Shown here in pieces: positions 48,832 through 63,456 of a DNA stretch of 64,000 nucleotides. The notes under the pieces are model-generated. The model did not search any database and was not told the origin of the DNA. It saw only the letters and a program-made list of their open reading frames with translations. This DNA is from Bacteroidales bacterium (GTDB lineage Bacteria; Bacteroidota; Bacteroidia; Bacteroidales; JAIOZK01): the NCBI GenBank assembly GCA_021738625.1, contig JAIPBS010000007.1, forward strand, positions 22,100 through 86,099. The letters are read 5' to 3'. Position 1 is the stretch's first letter; each line of letters begins with the position of its first letter. Made by a program: the position numbers and the translations under genes.

Positions 48832-49377
48832 ATGCTTGATGCACTAATTACATCCAAAACCCGTCTTAAGATCCTGCTCAGGTTTTTTCTGAATAGCGGG
48901 AACAGTTCCTATCTAAGAAACCTGGCTACGGAGTTCAACGAATCAACCAACAGCATCAGGGTGGAGCTGAACCGATTTGAGGAAGCCGGATTGTTGAATG
49001 CATATCAGAAAGGAAATAAGAAAATATTCAGGGCGAACACCACGCATCCTTTATATCCGGATATACAAAACATTCTGATGAAACATATCGGACTGGATAA
49101 GATCATCGACAATGTGATTAACAAATTGGGGGATGTAAAAAAGGTTTTTGTTGCCGGTGATTTTGCCAGAGGCATCGACAGCAGGATCATCGATTTGATA
49201 TTTGTTGGGGACATCAACCAGCAATATCTGATCATGCTGATCGATAAAGTAGAGAAACTGATCAGCAAAAGGATCAGGTATGTGGTTTTTAGCGAACAGG
49301 AGTTCGGTGAATACAAAGAAATAAATAAAGAAGCCAAAACACTGTTGCTGTGGGAAAAACAAATGATTGAACAATGA
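48832..49377 (+). CDS. Winged-helix (ArsR-like) regulator with a nucleotidyltransferase-like C-terminal domain
   Basis: KTRLKILLRFFLN...YLRNLATEF...SIRVELNRFEEAGLL, and VFVAGDFARG...DLIFVGD. Confidence 0.55.
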   Translation: MLDALITSKTRLKILLRFFLNSGNSSYLRNLATEFNESTNSIRVELNRFEEAGLLNAYQKGNKKIFRANTTHPLYPDIQNILMKHIGLDKIIDNVINKLGDVKKVFVAGDFARGIDSRIIDLIFVGDINQQYLIMLIDKVEKLISKRIRYVVFSEQEFGEYKEINKEAKTLLLWEKQMIEQ

Positions 49378-49901
49378 AGGGTGAAAACAGGAAATGGTAT
49401 GCGGTTTATACGAAGTCGCGGGGAGAGAAGAAAGCCAAAATGCTTTTGGACGAGCAGGAAATACCGAACTATTTGCCGCTGGTGAGAACGCTGAAGCAAT
49501 GGAGCGACAGAAAAAAATGGGTGAATGAACCCCTGATTCGTTCTTATATTTTTGTTCATCTGGCAAATGACAGGGAATATCTTGACGTGCTCCAGACGGA
49601 TCACATAGTCAGGTTTATCACCTTCGAAGGGAAAGCCGCTCCGATTCCGCAAAAGCAAATTAACAACATCAAATTGCTGTTGGCCTCTGAAGCTGATCTT
49701 GAGGTGACTTCGGAGAATTTTGAGGAAGGAGTGGAAATTGAAGTGAGAGCCGGACTTTTAAAAGGCCTAACCGGCACTTTGATCGAGCAAAGAGGAAAGA
49801 ACAAGGTTCAGGTCAGGTTGGAAGCCATCGGCCAAAGCATCTTGGTGGAGATACCGGTGGTTTATTTGAAGAAGAGGAGAGAGGTGAGAGGAGAGAGATG
49901 A
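49374..49901 (+). CDS. UpxY-family (NusG paralogue) transcription antiterminator
   Basis: WYAVYTKSRGEKKA NGN domain and a C-terminal KOW-like segment. ATGA overlap with the upstream gene. The last 10 codons lie in a purine heptamer array. Confidence 0.8.
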   Translation: MKGENRKWYAVYTKSRGEKKAKMLLDEQEIPNYLPLVRTLKQWSDRKKWVNEPLIRSYIFVHLANDREYLDVLQTDHIVRFITFEGKAAPIPQKQINNIKLLLASEADLEVTSENFEEGVEIEVRAGLLKGLTGTLIEQRGKNKVQVRLEAIGQSILVEIPVVYLKKRREVRGER

Positions 49902-49994: not shown

Positions 49995-50006
49995 GGCGGA
50001 GCTGTG
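49995..50006 (+). promoter_or_regulatory. ops-like 12-mer GGCGGAGCTGTG (copy 1 of 3)
   Basis: Identical 12-mers occur at 49995-50006, 60995-61006 and 62232-62243, all on the + strand and all preceded by purines. Confidence 0.35.
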
Positions 50007-50011: not shown

Positions 50012-50068
50012 GTTACAGGTTGCACATTACAGGTTGCAAGTTTATACCTGTAACATGCAACTTGCAAC
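50012..50068. repeat. Cargo-less imperfect inverted repeat built of heptamers (TTACAGG/TTGCAAG words)
   Basis: TTACAGGT (50028-50035) pairs with ACCTGTAA (50046-50053). The flanking heptamers are partly complementary. Confidence 0.7.
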
Positions 50069-50125: not shown

Positions 50126-51436
50126 ATGATCGAAACAAAAATCGCTGTTATCGGCCTTGGATACGTCGGACTGCCCCTGGCAGTGGAGTTTTCGAAGAAA
50201 TACCCGGTTGTAGGTTTTGATGTTAAAAAGGAACGGGTGGAAGAGCTGGAAGAAGGCCATGACGCCACCATGGAAGTGGAGAGCGATTTGCTGAAATCAG
50301 TGCTGGTAGACAACCATGATCATGATAAAGGATTGTACGTTACCCATAGTAAAATATTCATTCAGGATTGCAATTATTATATCATAACGGTACCCACCCC
50401 TATTGATAAAAATAAACGGCCGGATCTGACGCCCCTGCTGAAGGCTTCCGAAACCGTTGGCAGCGTGCTGAAAAAGGGAGATATTGTTATTTATGAATCC
50501 ACGGTATATCCGGGAGCAACCGAAGAAGAATGTGTGCCGGTGCTTGAAAAATTCAGCGGCATGAAATTCAACAGGGATTTCTATTGCGGCTATTCGCCCG
50601 AACGCATTAATCCGGGTGACAAGGTGCATACGGTGAGCAAGATCAAAAAGGTAACCTCCGGCTCCACCCCTGAAGTGGCCGAGCAAGTCGATCAGCTTTA
50701 TAAAGCCGTGATCGAAGCGGGGACCCACAAGGCATCTTCCATGAAGGTTGCCGAGGCAGCCAAGGTGATCGAAAATTCTCAAAGAGACATCAATATCGCC
50801 TTTGTGAACGAACTGGCCGTGATTTTCGGCAAACTGGGTATCGACACCAACGAAGTGCTGGTAGCCGCCGGAACCAAATGGAATTTCCTTCCCTTTAAAC
50901 CCGGACTGGTTGGCGGGCATTGCATAGGGGTTGATCCTTATTACCTCACCCACAAGGCACAGGAGATCGGGCACAATCCCGAGATCATCCTCTCGGGCCG
51001 ACGCATGAACGACAATATGGGCGTTTACGTGAGCAACCAGGTGATCAAGCTGATGATCCAAAAAGGCCATAAAGTGGCAGGCTCGAAAGTTTTGGTACTG
51101 GGCATCACCTTCAAGGAAAATTGTCCCGACATCCGAAACTCAAAAGTTATCGACGTGATCAACGAACTAAAAGATTTCGAATGTGATGTAGACGTTTACG
51201 ATCCCTGGGCCAGCTTCGAAGAAGTTAAACATGAGTATGGCATTAATTTAATTTCTTCCACAAACTTTCCCCCTTTAGGGAGGACCGAGGGGGGTAAAGG
51301 CTACGACGCCATCATTCTCGCCGTTGCCCACGATAAATTCAGGGAACTCGACATTGAGGCCCTCAAAAACGGGAATGCAGTGGTTTATGATATTAAGGGA
51401 TTTTGGGATAAGGCTATGGTTGATGGGAGACTGTAA
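50126..51436 (+). CDS. Nucleotide-sugar 6-dehydrogenase (UDP-glucose/GDP-mannose dehydrogenase family, TviB/WbpO-like)
   Basis: [30 protein letters not shown]. Confidence 0.9.
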
Positions 51437-51475
51437 GTGGTGAATGGTGAATGGTGGGTAGTGAATGATGAATAG
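51437..51475. repeat. Left arm of cassette 1 (GGTGAAT-type heptamers)
   Basis: Starts 1 nt after the dehydrogenase stop. GGTGGGTAGTGAAT is complementary (13/14) to the right arm at 51946-51969. Confidence 0.75.
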
Positions 51476-51498
51476 ATTTTTTAATTGCTAAATGGATT

Positions 51499-51693
51499 CA
51501 TTACTGTCCGGTTAAACGCAACGGGATTCCTCGCTTCGCTCGGAATGACATGCTATTTGGGAGATACAAAGGGGATTGGGGGTAGTACGGCGGCTTTGCC
51601 GCCGTACTACCCCCAATCCCCTTCCAAGCCTCTGAAAACACTGTCATTCCGAGCAAAGCGAGGAATCTCCCCAAATTTCCCCGGACAGTAGTG
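51499..51693. mobile_element. 195-bp palindromic MITE-like element flanked by a 9-bp direct repeat
   Basis: AAATGGATT at 51490-51498 and 51694-51702. Termini TCATTACTGTCCGG / CCGGACAGTAGTGA (13/14). Inner arms GATTCCTCGCTTCGCTCGGAATGACA / its complement (25/26). Perfect 24-bp central stem with a TTT loop. Confidence 0.6.
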
Positions 51694-51695
51694 AA

Positions 51696-51917
51696 ATGGA
51701 TTATAAAAACCTAGATGTCTGGAAAAAATCTGTTGATTTTGTGACATTGATTTATTCCATTATTATTTATTGCACTTGGGTCATCAGCAGAAATTGAGAG
51801 CAACTTATTATTTCAGAAAATCTGAATTTCATCGAGGACAAAGAATCTATACTTGATCATTTAGCCACCGTAAGAAAACTTTTAAAAGGAACCATCAATT
51901 ACTTACAAAACAAATAG
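51696..51917 (+). pseudogene. Decayed four-helix-bundle (23S IVS protein / Avd family) gene, cassette 1
   Basis: N-terminus MDYKNLDVWKKSVDFV. The central FP..E.YGL..Q.RR..SI..NIAEG block is missing. ALGSSAEIE and the C-terminal helix are readable only in other frames. Confidence 0.6.
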
Positions 51918-51945
51918 AAGTAAAAAAATAATAGAACTAAGCACT

Positions 51946-51969
51946 CTATTCACTACTCACCGTTTACCG
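51946..51969. repeat. Right arm of cassette 1 (C/A-rich)
   Basis: CTATTCACTACTCACCGTTTACCG ends 7 nt before the epimerase ATG. Confidence 0.7.
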
Positions 51970-51975
51970 TAAGAA

Positions 51976-53211
51976 ATGGAAAAGATTCTAATCACCGGGA
52001 CAGCCGGCTTCATCGCTTACCACACAACCCTCAAATTCCTCTCCGAAGGATATGAAGTGGTAGGACTGGATAATATCAACGATTACTATGATATCAACCT
52101 GAAATATGGCAGGCTGGCTGAATCAGGTGTTACGGAGGATTCTGCAAGCAACTATTCGTTACAAGTTGCAAGTTCCATGTTGCAGGTAATAAGAGCAGAG
52201 AACACCCAAGCTGCAACCTGCAACTTGCAACCTGCAACTTTCAAAACCATGCAGGAATCCTCCCTCTTTGAATACGGGACCCTTTACCAAAGCAATACCT
52301 ACAAAAACTACCGCTTCATACGCCTGGCCCTGGAAGATTACGAAAGCCTGAAAGAGCTCTTTGAAAAGGAAAAATTCGACAAAGTGGTGCACCTGGCTGC
52401 ACAGGCAGGGGTACGCTACAGCCTGACCAATCCCTTTACCTATGCGGATTGTAACCTCAACGGCCACCTGAACATCATGGAAGCATGCAGGCATCATAAA
52501 GTCAAACACCTCGTCTATGCTTCCAGTTCCAGCGTTTACGGCTCCAACACAAAGATGCCTTTGTCCACCTCCGACAATGTGGATCATCCCATCAGCCTGT
52601 ACGCTGCCACCAAAAAAGCCAATGAGCTGATGTCATATACCTACAGTCATTTGTATGGCCTGCCTACAACCGGGCTGCGCTTTTTTACGGTTTACGGTCC
52701 CTGGGGCCGCCCCGATATGGCTCTTTTCCTGTTCACCAAAGCCATGCTCGAAGACAAACCCATCGACGTGTACAATCACGGTGAAATGTGGCGCGACTTT
52801 ACGTACGTGGAGGATATTGTGGAGGGAGTTTATCGTGTCACCTTTGATTCAAAAGCAATGACTTCAAAGATTTCAGATACCAAATTCCAGATACCAAATT
52901 CCGGCCCAGCTCAAAATTCAAAGTTCAAAACTCAAAACTCAATTGCCGATCCTTCAACATCAGCTCCTTTCAAGGTATATAACATCGGCAACTCCTCCCC
53001 GGTCAAGCTGCTGGATTTTATCAAAGCCATTGAAGATAAACTCGGGGTAAAGGCAAAGATGAACATGATGGACATGCAGCCGGGCGACGTTCCCAAAACC
53101 TGGGCCGATACCACCGACCTGGAAGCTGATGTGGGGTATAAACCGGATACTAGCGTGGAGGTGGGAGTTGGGAGGTTTGTGGAATGGTACAGGGAATATT
53201 ATTGTTCGTAG
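51976..53211 (+). CDS. NAD-dependent nucleotide-sugar epimerase (UDP-glucuronate 4-epimerase-like) with two in-frame simple-sequence insertions
   Basis: ITGTAGFIAYH, LAAQAGVRYS, YASSSSVYG, YAATKK, TGLRFFTVYGPWGRPDMA. Confidence 0.85.
   Translation: MEKILITGTAGFIAYHTTLKFLSEGYEVVGLDNINDYYDINLKYGRLAESGVTEDSASNYSLQVASSMLQVIRAENTQAATCNLQPATFKTMQESSLFEYGTLYQSNTYKNYRFIRLALEDYESLKELFEKEKFDKVVHLAAQAGVRYSLTNPFTYADCNLNGHLNIMEACRHHKVKHLVYASSSSVYGSNTKMPLSTSDNVDHPISLYAATKKANELMSYTYSHLYGLPTTGLRFFTVYGPWGRPDMALFLFTKAMLEDKPIDVYNHGEMWRDFTYVEDIVEGVYRVTFDSKAMTSKISDTKFQIPNSGPAQNSKFKTQNSIADPSTSAPFKVYNIGNSSPVKLLDFIKAIEDKLGVKAKMNMMDMQPGDVPKTWADTTDLEADVGYKPDTSVEVGVGRFVEWYREYYCS
52158..52238. repeat. 81-nt heptamer inverted repeat inside the epimerase CDS
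   Basis: Left arm GTTACAAGTTGCAAGTTCCATGTTGCAGGT versus right arm AGCTGCAACCTGCAACTTGCAACCTGCAAC (25/30 complementary) with a 21-nt loop. Confidence 0.8.
52884..52954. repeat. Second in-frame heptamer tract in the epimerase CDS
   Basis: CAGATAC-CAAATTC twice, then CTCAAAA/TTCAAAG/TTCAAAA/CTCAAAA/CTCAATT. Both parts are C/A-rich. Confidence 0.7.
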
Positions 53212-53234
53212 TTGGTTGTTGGTAGTTGGTAGTG
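53203..53234. repeat. Left arm of cassette 2 (GTTGGTT/GTTGGTA heptamers)
   Basis: Overlaps the last codons and the stop of the epimerase gene. Confidence 0.75.
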
Positions 53235-53251
53235 TGTCATAACAAATTATT

Positions 53252-53624
53252 GTGGAAAAATCTGATTTTGAAAATTTAGAAGTATGGCAAAAAGGAATGA
53301 CCTTAGCTGAGTTTTGCCTTGATTTAACTAATAGACTATCAAATCAGAAAAAACATTACAGATTAATCGAACAACTTGAGAGTTCTTCGATGGGTATTCC
53401 ACAAAATATTGCTGAAGGTAAAGGCCGTTTTTCAAAAAAATGAATTTTTACAGTTCTTATATTATGCCAGAGGATCATTATATGAAACTATAACCATAAT
53501 AATCATCTTTTATCGAAAGGAATGGATAAACCAAGATGAGCATGCTTCATTCAGAGTAATGTCGAATGAATTAAGTATAAAATTAAATGCATTAATTAAC
53601 AGTATTAAAAGAGGCATGAAATAA
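53252..53624 (+). pseudogene. Frameshifted four-helix-bundle gene, cassette 2
   Basis: GTG start. FENLEVWQKG...IPQNIAEGKGRFSKK then TGA. The family continues in the +1 frame (EFLQFLYYARGSLYET...). The shift lies at the A7 run 53434-53440. Confidence 0.7.
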
Positions 53625-53710
53625 ATAAATAGTTGATTGCTTATTGCAGGTATTCAAGAAGAAAATTCTAAATATATTTTAAAAACAAATAGTTAACATA
53701 AGCCACAAAC

Positions 53711-53737
53711 CTGCTACGAGCAACGAACAACGAACTA
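53711..53737. repeat. Right arm of cassette 2 (CTACGAG/CAACGAA heptamers)
   Basis: About 22/29 complementary (counting G-U pairs) to 53203-53234. Ends 5 nt before the cysD ATG. Confidence 0.6.
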
Positions 53738-53742
53738 ATATT

Positions 53743-54651
53743 ATGAATCAATACAAACTAAACAACCTCCGCGAACTCGAGGCCGAAAGCATCCACATCA
53801 TCCGCGAGGTGGCTGCCGAATTTGAAAATCCCGTGATGCTCTATTCCATCGGGAAAGATTCATCGGTGATGGTACGCCTGGCCGAAAAAGCCTTTCATCC
53901 CGGTAAAGTGCCTTTTCCGTTGATGCACATCGACTCCAAATGGAAGTTCAGGGAAATGACGGCCTTTCGCGACAGGTATGCCAAAGAAAACAACTGGGAC
54001 CTGATCGTGCATTACAATAAAAAGGGTTTTGAGGAAGGCGTCGGGCCGTTCACCCACGGCAGCAAAGTACATACCGACATCATGAAAACCCAGGCCCTGC
54101 TGGAAGGGCTTACCAAATACGGCTTTGATGCAGCCTTCGGGGGCGCCCGCCGCGACGAGGAGAAATCACGCGCCAAAGAGCGGGTCTTTTCTTTTCGCGA
54201 CCGTTATCATCAATGGGATCCCAAGAATCAGCGTCCGGAGCTGTGGAATATTTATAATGCACGGGTCCATAAAGGTGAATCCATTCGCGTGTTCCCGCTC
54301 AGCAACTGGACCGAGCTGGACATCTGGCAGTACATCCGCCTGGAGGAAATCCCCATCGTGCCCCTGTATTTTGCAAAGGAAAGACCCATCGTGGAATGGA
54401 GCAACGCCCTTATTCTGGTTGACGACGAACGCATGCCCAAAGAGCTGGCTGATACTGCCAAAATGCGCAAGGTGCGCTTCCGCACGCTCGGTTGTTATCC
54501 CCTCACCGGTGCAGTTGAATCTGAAGCCGATACCGTTGAAAAGATCGTGGAAGAAATGATGACAGTGACCAAATCGGAAAGAACCACCAGGGTGATCGAC
54601 TTCGACCAGGAAGCGAGTATGGAGCAGAAGAAACGGGAAGGGTATTTTTAG
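53743..54651 (+). CDS. cysD: Sulfate adenylyltransferase subunit 2
   Basis: PAPS-reductase-fold N-terminus ([11 protein letters not shown]). High overall CysD-like pattern, ending ...EQKKREGYF. Confidence 0.95.
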
Positions 54652-54865
54652 GTTCAGAAGCTGAGAGGTTCAGAGGTTCAGAAGCTGAGAGGTTCAGAGG
54701 TTCAGAAGCTGAGAGGTTCAGAGGTTCAGAAGCTGAGAGGTTCAGAGGTTCAGAAACTGAGAGGTTCAGAGGTTCAGAAGCTGAGAGGTTCAGAGGTTCA
54801 GAAGCTGAGAAGTTCAGAGGTTCAGAAGCTGAGAGGTTCAGAGGTTTAAAAGTTCAAAGGCTTAG
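54651..54865. repeat. Left arm of cassette 3: 8 copies of a 24-bp unit (octamers GGTTCAGA/AGCTGAGA/GGTTCAGA) plus a degenerate copy
   Basis: The period-24 register was verified at 54651, 54675, 54699, 54723, 54747, 54771, 54795 and 54819. The array starts on the last base of the cysD stop codon. Confidence 0.95.
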
Positions 54866-54870
54866 TAGAA

Positions 54871-55233
54871 ATGGCGACTCATGAAACACTGGATATCTGG
54901 AAAATGTCTATTGATCTTGTTGAATTGATTTATAAATTGACCAGGCAGTTTCCAACCGAAGAAAAATATGGCCTTACAAATCAAATCAGAAGATGTGCTG
55001 TCTCAATTCCATCTAATATTGCTGAAGGTTCTGCAAGACAGACAGACAAAGAAAATTTACAGTTTCTATACATTGCATTGGGTTCAGTGGCTGAACTCGA
55101 AACTCAGTTGATCATTGCCAGGCGACTGAATTATATTCAGGATGATTCTATTTTAACTCAGACCAAAATGATCAAAGCCAAAATGATCAATTATATGAAA
55201 TACCTTAAATCATTAAAAAACAAAAACCGGTAG
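54871..55233 (+). CDS. Four-helix-bundle protein (23S rRNA IVS protein / Avd family), cassette 3, intact
   Basis: [10 protein letters not shown]...[27 protein letters not shown]...[19 protein letters not shown]. Confidence 0.85.
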
Positions 55234-55295
55234 TCATTCAAATACAATAGATTCTCAAAGTATTTAATAAATCGCTCAACTCTTAAACCATTGAG

Positions 55296-55440
55296 CATTT
55301 GAACCTCTGAACCTCTGAACATTTGAACCTCTGAACATTTGAACCTCTGAACATTTGAACCTCTGAACATTTGAACCTCTGAACATTTGAACCTCTGAAC
55401 TTCTGAACCTTTAAACTTCTGAACCTTTAAGCATTTAAAC
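55296..55440. repeat. Right arm of cassette 3: octamer array (CATTTGAA/CCTCTGAA, 16-bp unit)
   Basis: Its reverse complement (TTCAGAGG-TTCAAATG)n shares GTTCAGAGGTTCA with each left-arm unit. Confidence 0.9.
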
Positions 55441-55457
55441 CAACTACCAACTACCAA
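55439..55457. repeat. CCAACTA heptamer tract directly upstream of cysN, complementary to the cassette-2 left arm
   Basis: The reverse complement TTGGTAGTTGGTAGT matches 15/15 within 53218-53233. Confidence 0.7.
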
Positions 55458-55460
55458 AAT

Positions 55461-57365
55461 ATGGACATAAAAGAATTTCTTGATCAAGATCAAAAGAAAG
55501 ACCTGCTCAGGTTATTAACCGCAGGCTCAGTTGACGATGGTAAGAGTACATTAATCGGTCGTTTGCTTTTCGATAGCAAAAAACTCTACGAAGACCACCT
55601 GGCCGCCCTCGAACGCGACAGCAAACGCGAAGGCCACGCCGGAGGTGAAATAGATTATGCCCTGCTGTTGGACGGCCTGAAAGCCGAACGCGAACAGGGC
55701 ATCACCATCGATGTGGCCTATCGCTATTTTTCCACCAATAAAAGAAAGTTCATCATAGCCGATACCCCCGGCCATGAACAATACACCCGCAACATGATCA
55801 CAGGCGGTTCCACGGCCAACCTTGCCATCCTATTGGTGGACGCCCGCCACGGCGTGATCACACAAACCAAAAGGCATACCTTCCTGGTTAGCCTGCTGGG
55901 CATAAAGCATGTGGTGGTGGCCATCAATAAAATGGATTTGGTGGACTATAGCAAGGAGGTGTATGATAAGATCGTGGAGGATTACAAAAGTTTTGTGACT
56001 TCACTCGGTATCCCCGACATCAATTTCATACCGCTTTCCGCACTCAAAGGCGACAACGTGGTTGACCTTTCGGAACGAATGCCCTGGTACCATGGCACAA
56101 GCATGCTGGAGTTCCTGGAAACGGTGCACGTAACCTCCGATAAAAACTTTGAAGACCTGCGCTACCCGGTTCAGTATGTGATCCGCCCCGACCTCAAATA
56201 CAGAGGATTCGCCGGCAGGATGGCTTCCGGCATCCTCCGCAAGGGAGACGAAGTGATGGTGTTGCCTTCCCGACAGAAGGCCTTTGTGAAAAGCATAGAT
56301 ACCTATAACGGGGAGCTGGCCTATGCTTTCCCTCCGCAATCCGTAACCGTTGCGCTCGACAGGGAAATAGACGTTTCCCGCGGTGAAATGCTGGTGCCCC
56401 CCAACAACATCCCGCGCATCGAACGGCACTTTGAAGCCATGCTGGTGTGGATGGATGAAAAACCCATGGATCCCTACACCCAGTTCTACATCAAGCAAAC
56501 CACCAACAACACCAAGGCGCGCATCGACAAGCTCCGTTTTAAGATCGATGTGAACACCCTGGAAAAATCCCAAGCCGATCACTTCGAGCTGAACGAGATC
56601 GGAAGGGTAGTGATGACCACGGTTAAACCGCTGTTCTTCGATCCCTATAAAAAGAATCACAATACCGGTTCGTTCGTGTTGATCGATCCCATCACCCACA
56701 ATACCGTGGCCGTGGGAATGATCCTGGACAAGGTTTCCGGTGATCACTATTCACGACTCACCCTTCACGATTCACAAAAGATCGTGAAAGGGGAATCCCT
56801 GATAAGTGAAAAGGAACGTCAAAAAAGATACAACCAGAAAGGCTCGACTCTTTGGATCACGGGATTGCACGGAAGCGGCAAAAACGAACTGGCCTATTCT
56901 CTCGAGAAACGTTTGTTCGAAATGGGCGCCACGGTGGTGCTGCTCGACGGCAAATCGGTGCGCTCGGGGCTGAGCCGCGAACTCGACTTTTCTCCCGCCG
57001 ACCGGGCAGAGCACCTCAGAAGGGTGGCGCACATCTGTAAGCTGCTCAACGATCAGGGTGTCATCACCATTTGCTCCTTCGTGTCACCTGACGAAAATAC
57101 ACGCACCCAGGTTGCTGAGATCATCGGTGAAAACCGCTTCAAACTTATTCATCTGGATGCAGACATCGAATTTGCCAAAAAGAACGACAAATACGGCCTG
57201 TATAAAATGGCTGAAAACGCTGAGCTCAAACATATGCCCGGCATCGACGATCGCTACGAAGAACCCCAATCCGCAGACATCACAATCAAAGCGGAAGACG
57301 ACGGGAAGAACGTGGAAGGAATATTGGAGAAGCTGGCGGAGTGGAAGATTTTCCCCAGGGAGTGA
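55461..57365 (+). CDS. cysN: Sulfate adenylyltransferase subunit 1 (GTPase) fused to a degenerate APS-kinase-like domain
   Basis: [18 protein letters not shown]. The C-terminal domain from 56841 has GLHGSGKNE and LDGKSVR in place of GLSGSGKST and LDGDNVR. Confidence 0.9.
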
Positions 57366-57382
57366 GATGGTTGCAAGCAGGA

Positions 57383-57487
57383 GTGTATGGATGTATGATT
57401 GTATGAATGCATGGATGTATGATTGTATAAATGCATGGATGTATGAATGCATGGATGTATGAATGTATGAATGATGCATGATTGTGG
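57383..57487. repeat. Left arm of cassette 4 (GTATGGAT/GTATGATT/GTATGAAT/GCATGGAT octamers)
   Basis: Begins 18 nt after the cysN stop. Period is 8 nt. Confidence 0.9.
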
Positions 57488-57515
57488 GAATACAATGCAA
57501 TCAATCATTTTTTAA

Positions 57516-57968
57516 ATGAATGAGGAACTTATCAATAGAAATCGGAATATTAACAGAGGTTTTCGTAAGCTAATTGTTTGGCAGGAAGCTATCAATTTTT
57601 ATGCATTTATTAGCAAGCAACTAACCCTCATGATAGATATTTCATTCAAGGTAAAAGGGCAGGTAGATGCATCCGCTTTTTCGGTTCATTCCAATATTGC
57701 GGAAGGGTATGCAAGAAGATCATTAAAAGATATTATTAACTTTAATAATTATGCGCTTGGATCCCTTGCTGAAAACTACAGTCAAATATATGCGCTTTTT
57801 ACTGCTGAAAAGATTGATAAAGAGTGGTTTGATAACTTTGACAAAGTCCATTATTCTTTAGAGAACAAACTTTTAGCCTACAACAAATCATTGTTGAAGA
57901 AACTTAAAAACAAGGATGAATGGTTTGATGATTACACTGCCAGGGAAGATGATATAACTTATGAATGA
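57516..57968 (+). CDS. Four-helix-bundle protein, divergent member, cassette 4, intact
   Basis: FRKLIVWQEAINF...SVHSNIAEGYARRS...ALGSLAENYSQ. Confidence 0.7.
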   Translation: MNEELINRNRNINRGFRKLIVWQEAINFYAFISKQLTLMIDISFKVKGQVDASAFSVHSNIAEGYARRSLKDIINFNNYALGSLAENYSQIYALFTAEKIDKEWFDNFDKVHYSLENKLLAYNKSLLKKLKNKDEWFDDYTAREDDITYE

Positions 57969-57976
57969 AGGTCCCA

Positions 57977-58042
57977 ATGCATACAACCATACAATCATAC
58001 AATCATACAACCATACATCCATACATCCATATAGTCATACAT
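57977..58042. repeat. Right arm of cassette 4 (CCATACAA/TCATACAA/CCATACAT octamers)
   Basis: Its reverse complement contains TGGATGTATGG and GTATGATTGTATG, as in the left arm. Ends 8 nt before the permease ATG. Confidence 0.9.
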
Positions 58043-58050
58043 TAAATTAA

Positions 58051-59841
58051 ATGTCTGCTGATCAGATAGTCGTCCTCCTCGTCCTCCTCTTCATCATCCT
58101 CTCCCTTTACTTTAACTGGGTAGGGCCGGGATTTACTTTCACCATCGGGGTGGTGGTGCTGGGGATATTCGATGTGCTGACACCGTCGGAGATCCTGAGG
58201 GGTTTTTCCAATGAGCAGATCGCCGTGATCGTTTTGTTGCTGATCATAGGCGATACCATCCGACGATCGGCTATGCTGGATGTTGTGTTTGGGAAATATT
58301 TCAAGGACAGGCTCTCGCACAAAGGCTACCTCTTCAGGATGACCACCCTGGTGGCTACCTTTTCGGCTTTCCTGAACAATACCCCCCTGGTGGCCATCCT
58401 CATGCCGCATGTACATGCCTGGGGCAAGAAAAACAAGATCAACCCGTCCAAGCTGCTGATCCCCCTGTCTTTTGCCGCCATCCTGGGCGGATGCCTTACC
58501 CTGATCGGGACCTCCACCAACCTGGTGGTAAACGGACTGGTGGAAGAGCAAAACATCTTTACGGATTTCAAATCCCTCAACATCTTCGACTTTACCCCGG
58601 TGGGGCTGCCCATGGCGGTTATCGGGATCGTTTACCTGGTATTCTTCAGCAAAAAGCTGTTGCCCGAAAGAGAAGACGTGCTGGAAGACTTTACCAAAAA
58701 ACAAAGGGAATACATGGTGGAGGTGCGTGTGAAAACGGCTTCCAAGCTGCATGGCAGGAGCATAGAAGAAGCCGGCCTGCGGAGCCTGCCCGGCCTGTTC
58801 CTGGTGGAGATCGTGCGCAATCAGATCGCCCTGGCGGCTGTATCCCCGCAAACCAAAATATTTGAAGAAGACATCCTGCACTTTGCCGGTGAAACCGAGA
58901 CCATCGCTGAACTGATCAACGAGAAAAACGGCCTGCAACTCGCCCAGATGGGCATGTTCAGCAAGAAGAAACATACCGAACTGCTCGAGGTGGTGGTATC
59001 CTATAACTCCACCCTTATCGGAAAGCTGGTCAAAGACAGTAACTTCCGGGCGCGTTTCGACGCTGCCATCATCGCCATCCACCGCAACGGCGAAAAGATC
59101 ACCGGCAAGATAGGGGATGTAAAGCTGATGGCCGGCGACGTATTATTGCTTATCGCCGGTGACGACTTCAAAAACCATTACAAAGAAACCAACGAGTTTT
59201 ACCTGATCAGCAAAGTGCGCGATTTCCGCAAACCCAATGTATTCAACAACTACTTCCTGATCGGGGGAACCATACTGGCCATTTTGCTTTCGGCTTTCAA
59301 GCTCATAAGCCTGTTTCTGGCCCTGATCATATTGTTGTCACTGATCATGATCTTTAAGATCACATCGCCCAAAAGCGTGGCCAAAAGCATCGACTTCAAC
59401 CTGATCATCGTCATTGCCCTGGCCCTGTCGCTGGGCACGGCCATGATCAAAACCGGCGTGGCCGGCCAAATGGCGCATTTCACCTTTGAAGTCCTTAAGC
59501 CTTTCGGCATTATCGGCATCATGGCAGGCATCTATGCCATCACCACCCTGTTGGGCGCCCTCATCACAAACAAGGCCGCTGTGGCGCTCATTCTGCCCGT
59601 AGCACTCACCCTGGCCCTGGAGATGAACCTCGATCCCAGGCCCTTTGCCCTGCTGGTCGCCTTTGCCGGCGCCGCCAGCTTCCTCACGCCCATCGGCTAC
59701 CAGACCAACCTCATGGTATACGGTCCGGGCGGCTACAACTTCCGCGACTTCCTGCGCATTGGAACACCACTGACGGTGATCTACCTGCTGGGGACGGTGT
59801 TGATTTTGGTGTGGCAGTTTGGGTTGGTGCGTCGTTGGTAG
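58051..59841 (+). CDS. SLC13/DASS-family anion permease with two central TrkA-C (RCK_C) domains. Likely a sulfate transporter by context.
   Basis: Polytopic N- and C-terminal halves with two cytoplasmic RCK_C-like segments (EVRVKTASKLHGRSIEE..., VVVSYNSTLIGKLVKD...). Confidence 0.8.
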   Translation: MSADQIVVLLVLLFIILSLYFNWVGPGFTFTIGVVVLGIFDVLTPSEILRGFSNEQIAVIVLLLIIGDTIRRSAMLDVVFGKYFKDRLSHKGYLFRMTTLVATFSAFLNNTPLVAILMPHVHAWGKKNKINPSKLLIPLSFAAILGGCLTLIGTSTNLVVNGLVEEQNIFTDFKSLNIFDFTPVGLPMAVIGIVYLVFFSKKLLPEREDVLEDFTKKQREYMVEVRVKTASKLHGRSIEEAGLRSLPGLFLVEIVRNQIALAAVSPQTKIFEEDILHFAGETETIAELINEKNGLQLAQMGMFSKKKHTELLEVVVSYNSTLIGKLVKDSNFRARFDAAIIAIHRNGEKITGKIGDVKLMAGDVLLLIAGDDFKNHYKETNEFYLISKVRDFRKPNVFNNYFLIGGTILAILLSAFKLISLFLALIILLSLIMIFKITSPKSVAKSIDFNLIIVIALALSLGTAMIKTGVAGQMAHFTFEVLKPFGIIGIMAGIYAITTLLGALITNKAAVALILPVALTLALEMNLDPRPFALLVAFAGAASFLTPIGYQTNLMVYGPGGYNFRDFLRIGTPLTVIYLLGTVLILVWQFGLVRRW

Positions 59842-59892
59842 TCATTTGCTTCGCGTAATTAATAGTTGTTTGCTTGCGTAATTGTTATTGTC
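59841..59892. repeat. Left arm of cassette 5 (two copies of TTTGCTTSGCGTAATT)
   Basis: Starts on the last base of the permease stop codon. T/G-rich. Confidence 0.6.
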
Positions 59893-59914
59893 AATTAACC
59901 AAAACTTAATAAGA

Positions 59915-60115
59915 GTGAAACTTGAAGATTTTAAGGTATATAATCTGGCCATGGAACTGGGCGAAGTGATTTATGAGATTGTAATAAAATGGGATTATTT
60001 TCATAAGGATACCATGGGAAAACAATTGGTTCGTGCAGCCGACTCGGTGGCTTCAAACCTGAGTGAGGGGATCGGAAGATATCATTATAAGTTGATCCGC
60101 ATTTCAACAAATTGA
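59915..60115 (+). pseudogene. 3'-truncated four-helix-bundle gene, cassette 5
   Basis: GTG start. LEDFKVYNLAMELGEVIY...GKQLVRAADSVASNLSEGIGRYHYK then runs out of the family into the right arm and stops. Only helices 1-2 are present. Confidence 0.55.
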
Positions 60116-60161
60116 CGCACGACATAAATAAATAGACAAACCCACAGCAAGACGAGACAGC
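60106..60161. repeat. Weak C/A-rich right arm of cassette 5
   Basis: AATTGACGCACGA is partly complementary to TGCTTGCGTAATT of the left arm. Ends at the cysC ATG. Confidence 0.35.
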
Positions 60162-60773
60162 ATGAAACCAACCAACATCCACCCGGTCTTTCACCAGATA
60201 CTCACGCGGGCCGACAAGGAGAAATTCCTCAACCAGCGGGCCTGTGTGATCTGGATGACGGGACTGTCGGGCAGCGGCAAGACCACCATTGCCCGCAACA
60301 TCGAACTGGAGCTCAACCGGCGCGGCCACCTCACCCAGGTACTCGACGGCGACAACATCCGTACCGGCATCAACAACAACCTGGGCTTTACGGAGGAGGA
60401 CAGGATTGAGAACATCCGCCGAATAGCCGAGGTGAGCAAACTGTTCGTGCACTGCGGCATCATCTGCATCAACAGCTTTATCAGTCCCACCAGGGAGATC
60501 CGTAATATGGCCCGGAACATCATCGGTGAAGAGGATTTCATTGAGGTCCATATCAATGCCCCGTTGGAAGTCTGCGAGCAACGCGACGTAAAAGGCCTCT
60601 ACAAAAAAGCCCGTGAAGGTAAGATCAAAAACTTTACCGGCATAGACGCTCCCTTCGAAACACCGGAAAAGCCGGCCATAGAACTCAAGACCGGAGAGCT
60701 CAGCATACCCCAATGCGTTGAACAGGCCATGGAAGTGCTGGGGCCGAGGGTGAGTTATGTTGGGGATGAGTAG
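60162..60773 (+). CDS. cysC: Adenylyl-sulfate kinase
   Basis: Canonical GLSGSGKTT, LDGDNIRTGIN, DRIENIRR, FISP, RDVKGLYKKAREG..NFTGID. Confidence 0.9.
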   Translation: MKPTNIHPVFHQILTRADKEKFLNQRACVIWMTGLSGSGKTTIARNIELELNRRGHLTQVLDGDNIRTGINNNLGFTEEDRIENIRRIAEVSKLFVHCGIICINSFISPTREIRNMARNIIGEEDFIEVHINAPLEVCEQRDVKGLYKKAREGKIKNFTGIDAPFETPEKPAIELKTGELSIPQCVEQAMEVLGPRVSYVGDE

Positions 60774-60914: not shown

Positions 60915-60994
60915 TAACTCGAACTTTATCCGGCCTGCTGATACATTATCATACAGCAAGCTCTCTTAGCTTCTGAGAAACATGGGAGTGAAGG

Positions 60995-61138
60995 GGCGGA
61001 GCTGTGAAAAACCGGATGCTGGAAGTTGGAAGTTGGAAGCCGGAAAATTGATCCCGAAAATAATAATTGGTGTGAATTGGCTTATTTAGCGAAAATTCGC
61101 GGACAGAAATACCAAACCCAAAACAACAAACCCAAAAT
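60995..61138 (+). repeat. Leader-type repeat element, copy A (ops-like 12-mer, GGAAGTT heptamers, conserved ATTGGCTTATTTAGCGAAAATTCGCGGAC, C/A-rich tail)
   Basis: Aligns along its length with 62232-62368. The only length difference is in the heptamer block. Confidence 0.8.
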
Positions 61139-61166
61139 TCACTACCTTTGATACAAACGAAGTAAA

Positions 61167-61409
61167 ATGGATACCATCATCATAAATCCAAGAGACAAGG
61201 AAGAGCGTAATTTCTTCCTCGAATTGGCCAGAAGACTGGGTGTGAAAGCTAAAACGTTTGAGGATCTGCAGGATGAACAACTCCTCGAGGCGATGGAAAA
61301 AAACAAAAACACCCCGCTTACAGATAAACAAAATGTTCTGGATACATTGCAAAACAATTTAAACGAGGATAAACCAAACTATAAACAAAAAACACCTGCC
61401 TACCGGTAG
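61167..61409 (+). CDS. Small antitoxin-like protein (solo)
   Basis: 80 aa. The N-terminal about 35 aa (TIIINPRDKEERNFFLELARRLGV) resembles the N-terminus of ORF 61479-61718. A TACCTTTG -7-like box lies at 61143-61150. Confidence 0.35.
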   Translation: MDTIIINPRDKEERNFFLELARRLGVKAKTFEDLQDEQLLEAMEKNKNTPLTDKQNVLDTLQNNLNEDKPNYKQKTPAYR

Positions 61410-61414
61410 GCAGG
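61395..61414. other. Perfect 20-bp palindrome spanning the stop codon
   Basis: CCTGCCTACC|GGTAGGCAGG. No T-tract follows. Confidence 0.8.
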
Positions 61415-61478
61415 CAAAACAACACTTGCACAATAAACCCAGATATCGTAACTTTATAGTTAACACTACATCGAAAAA

Positions 61479-61718
61479 ATGAATACAATAAAAATATCGG
61501 TCAAGTCAGGGAAGGATGCTAATTTGTTGATCAGGCTCTTGAAATCTTTAAACTTTGTTTCAAGTGTTGAACAAATTGATGAAAAGAACTCAAGGCAATC
61601 CCTTAATCATTATGATCAGCTTCAAAAAACCTTAGATAAACTAAACCAGGAAGAACTATTCAGTGGTATTGATAATCCTGACCATTGGCAAAAAGAACAA
61701 AGAAATGAATGGAATTGA
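61479..61718 (+). CDS. Putative antitoxin of the downstream PIN toxin
   Basis: 79 aa, overlapping the PIN gene by 14 nt. Confidence 0.5.
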   Translation: MNTIKISVKSGKDANLLIRLLKSLNFVSSVEQIDEKNSRQSLNHYDQLQKTLDKLNQEELFSGIDNPDHWQKEQRNEWN

Positions 61719-62088
61719 TAAGTTACTGGACTCAAATATCCTGATTTATTTATCAAAGAAGCTACTCAAACTTTCTTCATTCTCAAAACCTGGTGATAGG
61801 ATATTGATTTCTGTAATTACCTATATGGAAGTACTGGGATACCCATTCAAGACTAAGAAAGAAGAAAAATTAGTAAAATCAATTTGTGATAGCCTGGAGG
61901 TTATTTACCTTGACCAAAACATTGTACATGAAGTTATCCGGATCCGAAAATCTGCAAAGATAAAACTACCGGATGCCATCATTGCTGCCTCAGCAATTGT
62001 TAATCATAGTGAACTGATTACGAGAAACACAAAAGACTTTGAAATCCCGGGCAGTCAACTTAAACTATTTAATCCTTTTGATAATTAA
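61705..62088 (+). CDS. PIN-domain (VapC-like) toxin
   Basis: LLDSNILIY (Asp), YMEVLG (Glu), LPDAIIAASA (Asp), ITRNTKDF. The ATG at 61705 is preferred to the upstream start. Confidence 0.75.
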   Translation: MNGIDKLLDSNILIYLSKKLLKLSSFSKPGDRILISVITYMEVLGYPFKTKKEEKLVKSICDSLEVIYLDQNIVHEVIRIRKSAKIKLPDAIIAASAIVNHSELITRNTKDFEIPGSQLKLFNPFDN

Positions 62089-62157
62089 AAAATAGCTGTT
62101 TAGTACTTCGGCAAAGTTTATCATGAGCCTGTGAATGACTCAGTATAAAATTGTTTA

Positions 62158-62221
62158 GTGTTTGGTGTTTGGTGTTCAGTGTTCAACAAACACAAAACAA
62201 CGAACACCAAACACCAAACAC
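62158..62221. repeat. Cargo-less perfect 20-bp heptamer stem
   Basis: GTGTTTGGTGTTTGGTGTTC (62158-62177) and GAACACCAAACACCAAACAC (62202-62221) are exact reverse complements. The loop is 24 nt. Confidence 0.95.
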
Positions 62222-62231
62222 AGAACAAGAA

Positions 62232-62368
62232 GGCGGAGCTGTGGGAAACCGGATGCTGGAAGTTAGAAGCTGGAAGTTAGAAGCCGGAAATTTGATCCTG
62301 AAAATAATAAATTGTGTTAATTGGCTTATTTAGCGAAAATTCGCGGACTGAAACACCAAACACAAAAT
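62232..62368 (+). repeat. Leader-type repeat element, copy B
   Basis: GGCGGAGCTGTG (62232-62243), CTGGAAG/TTAGAAG heptamers, then the same ATTGGCTTATTTAGCGAAAATTCGCGGAC block and a C/A-rich tail. Confidence 0.8.
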
Positions 62369-62402
62369 TTTACTAAATTTGTTAGAAACCAATCAATAAT
62401 AA

Positions 62403-62702
62403 ATGCTGTCTTCTGCTGAAATATTAAAGTTTTTAAAAGAAAACAAACATTACCTCAAAACCCATTTTAACTGCACAGAAATAGGTTTGTTTGGTTCATT
62501 TGCCAGGAATGAGCAATCGGAGAAAAGCGACATAGACATCCTGGTAAGTTTTGATCCAGACACCCCTGACCTGTATCATAAAGAACAGCAATTGAAGAAA
62601 TACCTGGAAGCAAATTTCAAACGGCCGGTGGATATCTGCGCCAAAAAATGGATAAGGCCGGTATTTAAACCAATGGTACTCAAGGAAGCAATGTATGCAT
62701 AG
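62403..62702 (+). CDS. MntA-type nucleotidyltransferase (type VII antitoxin)
   Basis: GLFGSFARNEQSEKSDIDILV. Overlaps the HEPN gene by 8 nt. A TAAATTTG box lies at 62374-62381. Confidence 0.8.
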   Translation: MLSSAEILKFLKENKHYLKTHFNCTEIGLFGSFARNEQSEKSDIDILVSFDPDTPDLYHKEQQLKKYLEANFKRPVDICAKKWIRPVFKPMVLKEAMYA

Positions 62703-63030
62703 CAAAGACTATTACATACTTCTCTCAATTATTGAAACAATTGAAAAAATCCTGAAATACACTGCTGATTATGCAACAGCAGAGGAGTTGTATGAAAACG
62801 ATCGGGATTTTGATGCAGCCATGATGAATTTCATTGTCATTGGTGAAAATGTTGGTAAGCTCTCTGATGCACTGAAAGAAGTTAACCAGCAAATTGACTG
62901 GCAAAAGATTTACGGTTTAAGAAACATCATTGCACATCATTACTTTGGAATCAATGTAGATATTGTCTGGGAGATCATACAAACAGACCTGCCAGCACTT
63001 AAAACAAACCTACAAAAGATCATCGAATGA
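62695..63030 (+). CDS. HepT-type HEPN (DUF86) toxin
   Basis: R-x4-H motif RNIIAHHY. Confidence 0.8.
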   Translation: MHSKDYYILLSIIETIEKILKYTADYATAEELYENDRDFDAAMMNFIVIGENVGKLSDALKEVNQQIDWQKIYGLRNIIAHHYFGINVDIVWEIIQTDLPALKTNLQKIIE

Positions 63031-63070
63031 ATCATCAGATACATCAATAACATATTGTTTTTTAGACATT

Positions 63071-63097
63071 AACACCAAACAACAAACACAAAACAAA
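63071..63097. repeat. C/A-rich heptamer tract
   Basis: AACACCAAACAACAAACACAAAACAAA, the same word family as 62349-62368 and 63361-63412. Confidence 0.7.
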
Positions 63098-63123
63098 TTC
63101 GTACCTTTAAAGAAAACAATAAA

Positions 63124-63315: not shown

Positions 63316-63317
63316 TA

Positions 63318-63412
63318 TGTGTTTGGTGTTCGGTGTTTCGTGTTCGGTGTTCGCAGCATAACACAAAACAACAAACACAAAACACAAAACAACAAACACA
63401 AAACACAAAACA
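63318..63412. repeat. Cargo-less imperfect heptamer arm pair (GTGTTTG/GTGTTCG versus ACACAAA/ACAACAA)
   Basis: G/T arm 63318-63353 and C/A arm 63361-63412 are separated by 7 nt. Roughly 70 percent complementary by eye. Confidence 0.75.
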
Positions 63413-63456
63413 AGGGTTTTATCACTGGGTAATCTTGAAGAATTTAAATTTAATAC

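Follow-up and report, generated by a model that had tools for sequence, protein, structure and literature searches.

Oriented four-helix-bundle gene cassettes with complementary word-array arms in the junctions of a Bacteroidales operon, probably selfish elements of the 23S rRNA intervening-sequence type

Small genes of the four-helix-bundle family PF05635/TIGR02436 occupy five consecutive junctions of a polysaccharide-export and sulfate-activation operon in a 64,000-nt stretch of DNA from a Bacteroidales metagenome-assembled genome (MAG; contig JAIPBS010000007.1, positions 22,100 to 86,099), hereafter the window. From ugd, encoding UDP-glucose dehydrogenase, to cysC, Pfam and NCBIfam scans place one such gene in each junction, on the same strand as the operon. 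The genes are the cargo of cassettes with a common anatomy, in which a G/T-rich left arm is followed by the small gene and then by a C/A-rich right arm that is reverse-complementary to the left one. The arms are lineage-specific inverted repeats, locally amplified into arrays of 7-8-nt words. Arms and gene are inherited as a unit, which has come to lie, over time, at various stop-start junctions within conserved operons of co-directional genes. The cassettes decay by frameshift, internal deletion and truncation. The explanation favoured here, to which a probability of about 0.62 is assigned, is that each junction holds an oriented, promoter-less selfish cassette of the 23S rRNA intervening sequence (IVS) type, looped out by its arms. 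Since the cargo is in sense orientation, it is presumably expressed from the host transcript. Most of the relatives compared with the window are likewise metagenome assemblies, hence array lengths are possibly inexact.

The five cassettes of the window

An earlier interpretation of the window, made without database searches (the sequence-only reading), had placed a gene of this family in all five junctions, two of them intact, one frameshifted, one internally deleted and one truncated. Both statements are upheld, as the Pfam and NCBIfam scans assign all open reading frames (ORFs) and remnants to PF05635/TIGR02436, and profile matches together with translations agree on the state of each copy. 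The cut-offs are 33.8 bits for PF05635 and 24 bits for TIGR02436. Both are exceeded by cassettes 3, 4 and 5 and by each half of cassette 2, while the cargo of cassette 1 scores 30.1 bits with TIGR02436 and, just below the cut-off, 31.5 bits with Pfam. Where they can be aligned by tblastn, the five copies share just ~26-39% identity and therefore are not recent duplicates. No sixth copy of the four-helix-bundle gene was found by tblastn in the remaining ~55 kb of the window.

All arms and cargo genes lie on the forward strand. Cassette 1 separates ugd from an NAD-dependent epimerase gene. Its left arm (51437-51482) consists of GGTGAAT-type heptamers (51438-51473, period 7, in Tandem Repeats Finder, TRF) and begins 1 nt past the ugd stop codon. 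Its right arm (51935-51975), defined by inverted repeat, duplex and fold, ends ~5 nt ahead of the epimerase ATG. The gene between them (51696-51917) is dead, the translations and the hidden Markov model (HMM) match showing an in-frame stop, a change of frame and the loss of an internal segment. A MITE-like element (MITE for miniature inverted-repeat transposable element) is nested between the left arm and the dead gene, at 51497-51695 with no strand assigned. It is a palindrome of two 98-nt arms, 77% complementary and 3 nt apart, with the core GTCATTCCGAGCRAAGCGAGGAATC and a central GC-rich hairpin, and it has no copy in other genomes among the loci examined.

The left arm of cassette 2 (53202-53245; TRF 53204-53233), made of GTTGGTA heptamers, overlaps the epimerase stop codon, and the CAACGAA-type right arm (53700-53742; TRF 53716-53735, ACGAACA) ends ~5 nt ahead of the cysD ATG. 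The frameshifted cargo (53252-53624) is read in two frames, 53252-53443 matching profile positions 1-56 and 53376-53624 positions 54-105. Cassette 3 begins within the cysD stop codon with a left arm (54649-54867) of 8.2 copies of a 24-nt unit, GGTTCAGA/AGCTGAGA (TRF 54650-54846, 97% matches). Its intact cargo of 120 aa (54871-55233) scores 130.6 bits with PF05635 and 129.5 bits with TIGR02436, and is followed by a right arm (55265-55441) of 8.9 copies of a 16-nt unit, CATTTGAA/CCTCTGAA (TRF 55300-55441). A separate outer ACCAACT array recovered by TRF (55439-55457) stands directly before the cysN ATG. It is complementary, across cysD, to the GTTGGTA left arm of cassette 2 (53204-53233), and GTTGGTA and TACCAAC arms fill the cysD-cysN junction of two related loci (L004 and L034). 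The ACCAACT array is probably what is left of an older cassette, inside which cassette 3 is nested or which it has replaced.

Cassette 4 has a left arm of GTATGAAT/GCATGGAT octamers (57383-57491; TRF 57384-57473, period 8) and an intact cargo of 150 aa with N- and C-terminal extensions (57516-57968; Pfam 66.1 bits). Its right arm of CCATACAA/TCATACAA words (57977-58043; TRF 57980-58031, period 8) ends 7 nt ahead of the permease ATG. In cassette 5, a left arm of GCGTAATT-type words (59839-59883; TRF period 24) precedes a 3′-truncated gene (59915-60115) that covers profile positions 1-56 only, and the right arm was evidently lost along with the 3′ half of the gene. This corrects the sequence-only reading, in which the arms of cassette 5 were called weak, when the right arm is in fact wholly absent. 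The description of the arms as tandem arrays of 7- or 8-nt words holds, TRF recovering the arrays where they had been placed. The further claim that each right arm ends 0-8 nt before the next ATG is correct for cassettes 1, 2 and 4 but not for cassette 3, in which the paired part stops 19 nt short of the cysN ATG and the gap is taken up by the ACCAACT array.

Pairing and folding of the arms

Inverted repeats of 21 nt at 86% identity (cassette 1, 51446-51466 and 51948-51968), 177 nt at 73% (cassette 3) and 66 nt at 79% (cassette 4) connect the arms. Duplexes of cognate arms were computed with RNAduplex and compared with those of 200 dinucleotide shuffles. The resulting z-scores are -7.2, -4.7, -13.8 and -5.9 for cassettes 1 to 4, with none of the 200 shuffles pairing as well, and -0.7 for cassette 5. 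Hence, in a comparison that the sequence-only reading had itself proposed, the cognate arms of cassettes 1-4 outperform their shuffles and those of cassettes 1, 3 and 4 also outperform all non-cognate combinations, but cassette 5 does not pass. Cassette 2 is ambiguous, as its right arm forms a duplex with the left arm of cassette 4 that is no weaker than the cognate duplex (-41.0 vs -40.0).

In minimum free energy (MFE) folds, the outer pairs of cassettes 1-4 are 51444-51970, 53209-53737, 54651-55441 and 57390-58043, which places the base of the stem at most 24 nt from the upstream stop codon and 5-19 nt from the next ATG. In the fold of cassette 3, 143 nt of the left arm are paired to the right arm. 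The two arrays of this cassette nevertheless differ, with a 24-nt higher-order unit on the left and a 16-nt unit on the right that have only the GTTCAGAGGTTCA core in common. Array length also varies between orthologues, the left array of cassette 4 measuring ~105 nt in the window and ~360 nt in a close relative (L001). The left and right arrays of one cassette are amplified separately, and these differences in unit and length indicate that local slippage is the proximate generator of the arrays.

Arms across related loci

The survey of relatives relied on 80 loci around cysD from species-representative genomes, and ~200 related loci were compared overall. A four-helix-bundle HMM built from the matches in the 80 loci identified 53 ORF segments, corresponding to 51 genes and remnants. 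When 150-nt flanks were paired, a threshold of z <= -3 was reached by 18 of 39 full-length four-helix-bundle genes and by 4 of 100 ordinary long genes of the same loci (Fisher p ~1e-8). A closing long-range stem was found in 34 of 35 folded junctions from the relatives and the window. The mean number of long-range pairs was 49.5, compared with 26.6 when the arms were shuffled with their composition kept, and in 17 of 32 junctions none of the 8 controls reached the observed count. The G/T-rich composition of the left arm and the C/A-rich composition of the right arm thus explain part of the pairing. Exact 8-mer coverage of 350-nt flanks had been tried as an arm detector and was rejected because its chance background (~15 nt) is too high. 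Duplex z-scores, ordinary-gene controls and lineage word counts were adopted in its place.

Both polarity and orientation are strict. Of 46 cassettes, 36 have a G/T-rich left arm, and the neighbouring genes are co-oriented with the cassette in 39 of 41 cases upstream and in 37 of 37 downstream (76/78).

The association of arm words with a protein lineage was examined with the cassette 4 protein (lineage h4). A metagenome scan returned ~65 relatives, from which 41 non-redundant cassettes with both flanks were retained. At least three words of the TG[A/C/T/G][A/T]TG family, in sense on the left and in reverse complement on the right, are present in 34 of these 41 cassettes. Word matches average 6.8 on the left and 8.6 on the right, compared with 0.8 and 1.2 in the wrong orientation, whereas 39 cassettes of other lineages average 0.8 and 1.3 matches and only two of them reach the threshold. 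Furthermore, in 27 of 35 h4 cassettes the left and the right arm agree in which variant prevails (TGATTG, TGCATG, TGTATG or TGAATG; permutation p < 1e-4). Among the surveyed loci, relatives of cassette 4 with 56-74% identity are found between cysN and the permease gene (L001), upstream of ugd (L005) and between cysD and cysN (L013 and L024). In L001 and L005, the gene has words of GATTG/GGATG type to its left and of CAATC/CATACAA type to its right. In L013 such words are found only on the left side, within the sequence examined, and in L024 mainly on the right.

Similar behaviour is seen in other lineages. The nearest homologues of cassette 3 (lineage h3, 58-70% identity) lie between cysD and cysN in other Bacteroidota (L084, L085, L088, L089 and L091), and in L090 and L092 members of this lineage stand upstream of an rpoD-like gene and downstream of a DUF4143 gene, respectively. 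GGTTCA(G/A/T)-type words on the left and TGAAC-type words on the right are common to L088, L089, L090 and L092, and in the sub-branch formed by L084, L085 and L091 both arms have switched together, to GATCA and TGATC. Relatives of cassette 5 (69-76% identity) are located between cysD and cysN (L052) and upstream of cysD (L014), with GCGTAATT and AATTACGC as words. Both arms of the related intact cassette of L052 are built of the left-arm words of cassette 5. More generally, proteins with at least 45% identity that reside in different contexts have more flank 8-mers in common, both upstream (19 vs 9 nt, p = 2e-4) and downstream (20 vs 8 nt, p = 0.006). Flanks were bounded by true ATG positions in this test, and a reverse-orientation control gave no effect.

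Complementarity is therefore kept through changes of word, as illustrated by the sub-branch that switched both arms. The sequence-only reading had stated that pairing is conserved and sequence is not. This is accurate at the level of the family, where the arms switch words together, but not within a lineage, where the words are strongly conserved. Indeed, they persist where synonymous sites are saturated (proportion of synonymous differences, pS, 0.62-0.80), hence sequence is constrained as well as pairing.

Turnover at the same junctions

Between cysD and cysN the spacer is as short as 23 nt (L047 and L070), spans 35-100 nt in many genomes and reaches 450 to ~1170 nt when occupied. A four-helix-bundle gene is present there in 24 of the 80 loci, and these genes form at least 8 clusters with less than 45% identity between them. 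Presence/absence polymorphism, which the sequence-only reading had suggested looking for, is found at the same junctions within genera. The cysD-cysN junction is occupied in one Mariniphaga locus (L020) and empty in three (L027, L029 and L039), occupied in one Draconibacterium locus (L042) and empty in two (L009 and L065), and occupied in one Maribellus locus (L054) and empty in two (L008 and L041).

Other cargoes occupy the same position. In L001, L002 and L019, the cysD-cysN junction holds a GxxExxY gene (TIGR04256, E = 6e-44), located at 10907-11620 in L001, and GxxExxY genes are bracketed by inverted repeats of their own, made of TTAGCGAAAATTCGCGGAC-type words. Translations of this junction point to a candidate GIY-YIG remnant in L005 and to a candidate RhuM-like fragment in L046, and hairpins resembling MITEs or repetitive extragenic palindromic (REP) elements are found at other loci. 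The arm-bracketed GxxExxY genes and the GIY-YIG-like remnant imply that the cassette format is not limited to four-helix-bundle cargo but extends beyond it.

The comparison of the window with L001 is instructive. Their CysD proteins are 96% identical, yet only one of the five junctions has the same cargo in both, namely cassette 4, with 74% identity and a frameshift in L001. The other junctions of L001 contain a cargo-less hairpin with different words (ugd-epimerase), arrays without a gene (epimerase-cysD), the GxxExxY gene (cysD-cysN) and an unrelated intact four-helix-bundle gene within near-perfect inverted repeats of ~110 nt (permease-cysC; z = -19). Altogether, the polymorphism, the unrelated lineages in the cysD-cysN junction and the occurrence of one lineage with its arm words in different junctions lend good support to the earlier hypothesis of a mobile cassette.

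The cargo protein

Intact cargo genes are under purifying selection, with a ratio of nonsynonymous to synonymous differences (pN/pS) of ~0.2-0.5 and saturated synonymous sites. Residues 3-112 of the cassette 3 protein match XCC0516 of Xanthomonas (PDB 2GSC) with E = 3.6e-30 in phmmer, making it the closest solved structure. XCC0516 has been described as a four-helix bundle that forms pentamers (PMC4990558). No nuclease family in Pfam or NCBIfam is matched by the cargo, which gives only weak matches to PF22296 and NF033474.

An identity as the Avd protein of diversity-generating retroelements (DGRs) was considered and rejected, as the NF033474 score of 25.3 bits falls below the cut-off of 80 and none of the neighbouring genes encodes a reverse transcriptase. 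The PF05635/TIGR02436 family is very large, with at least 7,996 matches at E <= 1e-5 among 8,000 candidates scored in one search, and we know of no function for it outside DGRs. The cargo may itself be a factor that serves its own element, and the non-autonomous status proposed in the sequence-only reading is therefore conjectural. The dead state of three of the five window copies fits a selfish element dispensable to the operon.

Cargo-less hairpins and atypical layouts

Hairpins made of similar words without a gene are found in and around the operon, all on the forward strand. One, seen in the sequence upstream of ugd (50015-50068), is built of CAGGTTGCA and TGCAACCTG words. A second lies in frame within the epimerase ORF (52158-52244; TRF GTTGCAA and CAACCTG), which remains open. 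Two more, recovered by TRF, consist of adjacent complementary heptamers, TGTTTAG and CAAACAC at 62152-62228 and GTGTTCG and AACACAA at 63319-63413. The CAGGTTGCA and TGCAACCTG words of two window hairpins are also the arm words that bracket a four-helix-bundle gene in L044. By analogy, the cargo-less hairpins relate to the cassettes as MITEs do to full-length insertion sequences.

The commonest cassette layout is left arm, gene and right arm. In L042, L034, L092 and cassette 4 of L001, the order is left arm, right arm, gene and second right arm, and in L007 the gene is surrounded by direct repeats of 71 nt. Empty junctions of congeners retain a short left-right hairpin that opens with the words of the occupied site (AGAGGTTGTCCGC in L009, AGAGGTTGTCTGCG in L020), and cargo-less hairpins with occupied-site words were seen in L009 and L027 on comparison with L020. 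The junction of L027, from Mariniphaga anaerophila DSM 26910, contains nothing but a hairpin of 90 nt. The layouts with duplicated arrays are compatible with a gene being gained or lost through recombination of one right-arm array with another, a left-right hairpin being what remains.

A gene with 59% identity to the cassette 3 cargo lies between fliQ and fliR in a Gastranaerophilales MAG (L086, 2964-3413). Its spacers measure just 36 and 28 nt, and a GTGAAGA heptamer array on the left has no complementary arm on the right. It is a minimal form in another phylum.

Arrays are also found inside coding sequences. The epimerase ORF of the window (411 aa) carries two in-frame array insertions, at 52150-52245 and 52860-52945, and the epimerase of L001 (553 aa) has different arrays at both sites (8270-8360 and 8990-9440, the second of ~360 nt). 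Different in-frame arrays at the same sites imply that arrays invade coding sequence at tolerated loops. An in-frame array of TCACGAT-type heptamers (56744-56775) encodes the linker of the CysN-CysC fusion, and a similar word, CTCACGATTCACAAA, occurs in the cysC leader of L001 (~17020). The linker may stem from a former junction array. Word arrays also produce long spurious ORFs.

The 12-mer GGCGGAGCTGTG occurs three times on the forward strand (49995-50006, 60995-61006 and 62232-62243), each time in an intergenic leader just upstream of an array, and is also found in L002-L005, L007 and L091. One element of ~150 nt is present in two copies, as the leaders at ~60990-61150 and 62230-62380. This element contains TTAGCGAAAATTCGCGGAC, the word from which the arms of the L001 and L002 GxxExxY cassettes are built.

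Proposed mechanism and alternative explanations

If the cassettes are selfish elements of IVS type, their arms would close a long stem in the transcript, the base of which would stand beside the upstream stop and the downstream start, so that the insert would be looped out in a manner resembling an rRNA intervening sequence at helix 25 or 45. The host operon would be kept working by translational coupling or re-initiation across the base of the stem, or by excision through RNase III. Processing by RNase III as in IVSs is plausible by analogy. Genes of Bacteroidota need an unstructured A/C-rich leader for translation initiation, and the G-poor right arm would double as such a leader. The cargo protein would be a candidate lineage-specific factor, which probably recognises its own arm words, given that these are conserved within a lineage beyond synonymous saturation. 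Candidate routes by which the cassettes would move are recombination, either from array to array or by way of the conserved flanking genes, and a protein-assisted step. Three features suggest a constraint at the transcript level, namely a strict polarity with co-oriented neighbours, a stem base located at stop and start codons, and a right arm low in G. The bolder proposal, that the four-helix-bundle proteins bind their own arm words sequence-specifically and, with the arms, define a transposase-less mobile class colonising highly conserved co-transcribed loci, both rRNA genes (as IVSs) and stop-start junctions of operons, with the stem functionally splicing the insert out at the RNA level, is rather doubtful.

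Several points weigh against a selfish cassette that is looped out of the transcript. Only about half of the four-helix-bundle genes of the relatives have arms at the stringent threshold, and arms shuffled with their G/T and C/A composition kept still pair substantially at long range. Arrays are one-sided in L086, and flanking repeats are direct rather than inverted in L007 and L014. Many of the compared cassettes are phylogenetically related, hence the counts exceed the number of independent events. No target-site duplication at the boundaries, recombinase or transposase was found in the loci examined. An asymmetry of G:U pairs between strands is absent, sense and antisense pairing being equal (16 vs 30, p = 0.19; 24 vs 17, p = 0.11), so that selection on an RNA rather than a DNA stem is not singled out. 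Cleavage by RNase III, loop-out and coupling are steps that we infer.

The absence of G:U asymmetry is what would be expected if the arms acted purely at the DNA level, as the terminal inverted repeats of a MITE or foldback-type element inflated by a replication slippage that would be generally active in this genome, the stem in the transcript being a side effect. This possibility deserves to be taken seriously, although it is held only tentatively. It would accommodate the independent amplification of the cassette 3 arrays (24-nt and 16-nt units), the abundance in the region of unpaired arrays and cargo-less hairpins, some of them in frame inside genes, and the MITE-like near-perfect inverted repeats of ~110 nt around cassette 5 of L001. 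However, the strict polarity of the words (6.8 and 8.6 vs 0.8 and 1.2 matches; G/T-rich left arms in 36/46) and the strict co-orientation with neighbouring genes (76/78) would not be expected if the DNA element were strand-neutral, short of selection on the transcript. Moreover, the arms are flush with stop and start codons, and the loci examined yielded neither a transposase nor a target-site duplication.

Purifying selection on the intact copies could also mean that the proteins benefit the host, as accessory or regulatory factors such as antitermination helpers or RNA chaperones, for which the arrays would be binding or regulatory sites, in which case the cassettes would not be selfish. The persistence of the h3 lineage between cysD and cysN across distant Bacteroidota and the position of the operon behind a NusG/UpxY-like gene would agree with such a role. 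It is nonetheless unlikely, as three of the five window copies are dead, the junction is empty in many congeners or filled by unrelated four-helix-bundle, GxxExxY, GIY-YIG or RhuM-like genes, and the same lineages occur in unrelated operons (between fliQ and fliR, upstream of an rpoD-like gene and between ugd and the epimerase gene). Finally, the window and most of its relatives are metagenome-assembled, and tandem arrays are hard to assemble, so that copy numbers are possibly wrong. That the whole pattern is due to chance or to misassembly of repeat-rich metagenomic DNA is, however, highly improbable. Three assemblies are 100% (L081 and L082) or 99.94% (L083) identical to the window, the same architecture is found in the isolate Mariniphaga sediminis SY21 (L020) and in Mb-scale single contigs (L001, L084 and L085), and the shuffle and control statistics are far from chance.

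Locus and operon context

The polysaccharide-export and sulfate-activation locus occupies the window from 44 kb onward. A NusG/UpxY-like gene (49374-49901, forward strand; PF02357 on L081) forms the head of the operon, outside the cassettes. It is followed by ugd (50126-51436), the NAD-dependent epimerase gene (51976-53211), cysD (53743-54651), the cysN-cysC fusion, referred to here as cysN (55461-57365), a CitMHS/SLC13-type permease gene (58051-59841) and cysC (60162-60773). The NusG/UpxY-like gene, together with a Poly_export gene and a GFO_IDH_MocA oxidoreductase gene, was identified by Pfam matches on the identical contig L081. The presence of a NusG/UpxY-type gene upstream may make structured inserts tolerable.

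Public assemblies from the same study match the region at 100% (L081 and L082) or 99.94% (L083), and these are the only contigs encoding an identical protein. The nearest other genomes are Bacteroidota/Bacteroidales MAGs with CysD proteins of 93-96% identity. No Rfam family, rRNA included, was matched anywhere in the window, and no terminator-like site was found on the forward strand in any of the five junctions. Scans for sigma-70 promoters and terminators were at chance level, with a promoter model that omits Bacteroidota promoters.

An ORF of 821 aa without a Pfam match on record lies between the Poly_export and GFO_IDH_MocA genes. A hexamer/30-nt tandem repeat (47327-47414) encodes a YGYGYG... 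tail near its C-terminus, and because of this terminal Tyr-Gly repeat the product looks like a candidate tyrosine-kinase-like chain-length regulator, its tail resembling the tyrosine cluster of bacterial tyrosine (BY) kinases; such a gene would be ordinary at this place. Downstream of cysC, the region 61100-64000 contains a run of small toxin-antitoxin-type genes (PIN, NTP_transf_2/HepT, RelB-like and AbiEii), which is interrupted by the cargo-less heptamer hairpins at 62152-62228 and 63319-63413.

Comparison with known systems

To our knowledge, how the ORF-bearing intervening sequences of rRNA arose and how they move has been debated since the 1990s. No description of complementary arrays bracketing PF05635/TIGR02436 genes, or of the colonisation of operon junctions by these genes, was found in a literature search that left most subscription journals outside, and IVS-type selfish cassettes with word-array arms in mRNA operons have apparently not been described before. 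The present observations suggest that the four-helix-bundle family forms discrete, oriented cassettes with complementary words of their own, which repeatedly colonise conserved operon junctions. A selfish-looking small gene would thereby become a defined element, with a protein, a word that is possibly recognised, a stem that is possibly processed, and empty and occupied sites in cultured congeners. Such cassettes would explain part of the tandem-heptamer landscape of Bacteroidota genomes. They also flag a problem for annotation, in the form of dead cassettes and of arrays read as ORFs or as in-frame insertions.

Tandem heptamers are known from other bacteria. Heptamer arrays that precede start codons have been described in Beggiatoaceae, in Cyanobacteria and in a small number of Bacteroidetes, and consist of direct repeats of a single word (PMC4679880). 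The TAACTGA arrays of these groups have a sporadic phylogeny and a variable copy number, and one indirect repeat was noted among them (PMC4679880). These arrays and the short tandemly repeated repetitive (STRR) sequences resemble the cassette arms as intergenic tandem 7-nt words that often lie directly upstream of start codons. They differ in using one word genome-wide, whereas the words described here are cassette-specific and form complementary pairs bracketing a gene. The parallel with STRR sequences drawn in the sequence-only reading is thus apt as to form, but the words differ from cassette to cassette and the host is a member of the Bacteroidales and not a heterocystous cyanobacterium.

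Like the cassettes, MITEs and REP elements are palindromic, and they are multi-copy and non-coding. The cassettes have terminal inverted repeats as MITEs do, but they have no conserved consensus, their arms are made of tandem words and their full-length forms carry a non-transposase gene. Rickettsia palindromic elements insert in frame into ORFs, and the cargo-less hairpin in frame within the epimerase ORF is similar in this respect. Free-standing homing endonuclease genes and integron cassettes are promoter-less, sense-oriented small genes expressed from the host transcript. Homing endonuclease genes sit between conserved genes, and the attC sites of integrons conserve structure more than sequence. 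The alternative cargoes of the cysD-cysN junction, GxxExxY (PD-(D/E)XK-like) and GIY-YIG, have nuclease folds, as homing endonucleases do, while the four-helix-bundle cargo has no known nuclease activity. In contrast to integron cassettes, the arms bracket the gene rather than trail it, and neither an integrase nor an attI site is found nearby in the operon. The Avd protein of DGRs has a homologous four-helix-bundle fold, but the window copies have no adjacent reverse transcriptase or template/variable repeats, and all neighbours are identified housekeeping genes.

The closest likeness is with the intervening sequences of 23S rRNA. In Coxiella, the 23S IVS contains a decaying S23p ORF in a stem loop that is cut by RNase III, and a variable number of tandem heptamers is found directly upstream of the ORF (PMC4990558). 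An origin of IVSs from mobile elements was proposed long ago (PMC4990558). Similar to the IVSs of Leptospira, Coxiella, Xanthomonas and Brucella, cassettes 1-4 carry a PF05635 cargo in sense orientation in the loop of an inverted-repeat stem. The ORF is often decaying in both, and the Coxiella heptamers adjoin their ORF as the cassette arrays do. The cassettes differ from IVSs in that they lie at stop-start junctions of a protein-coding operon, in a window without rRNA, and in that their arms are long arrays of lineage-specific complementary words.

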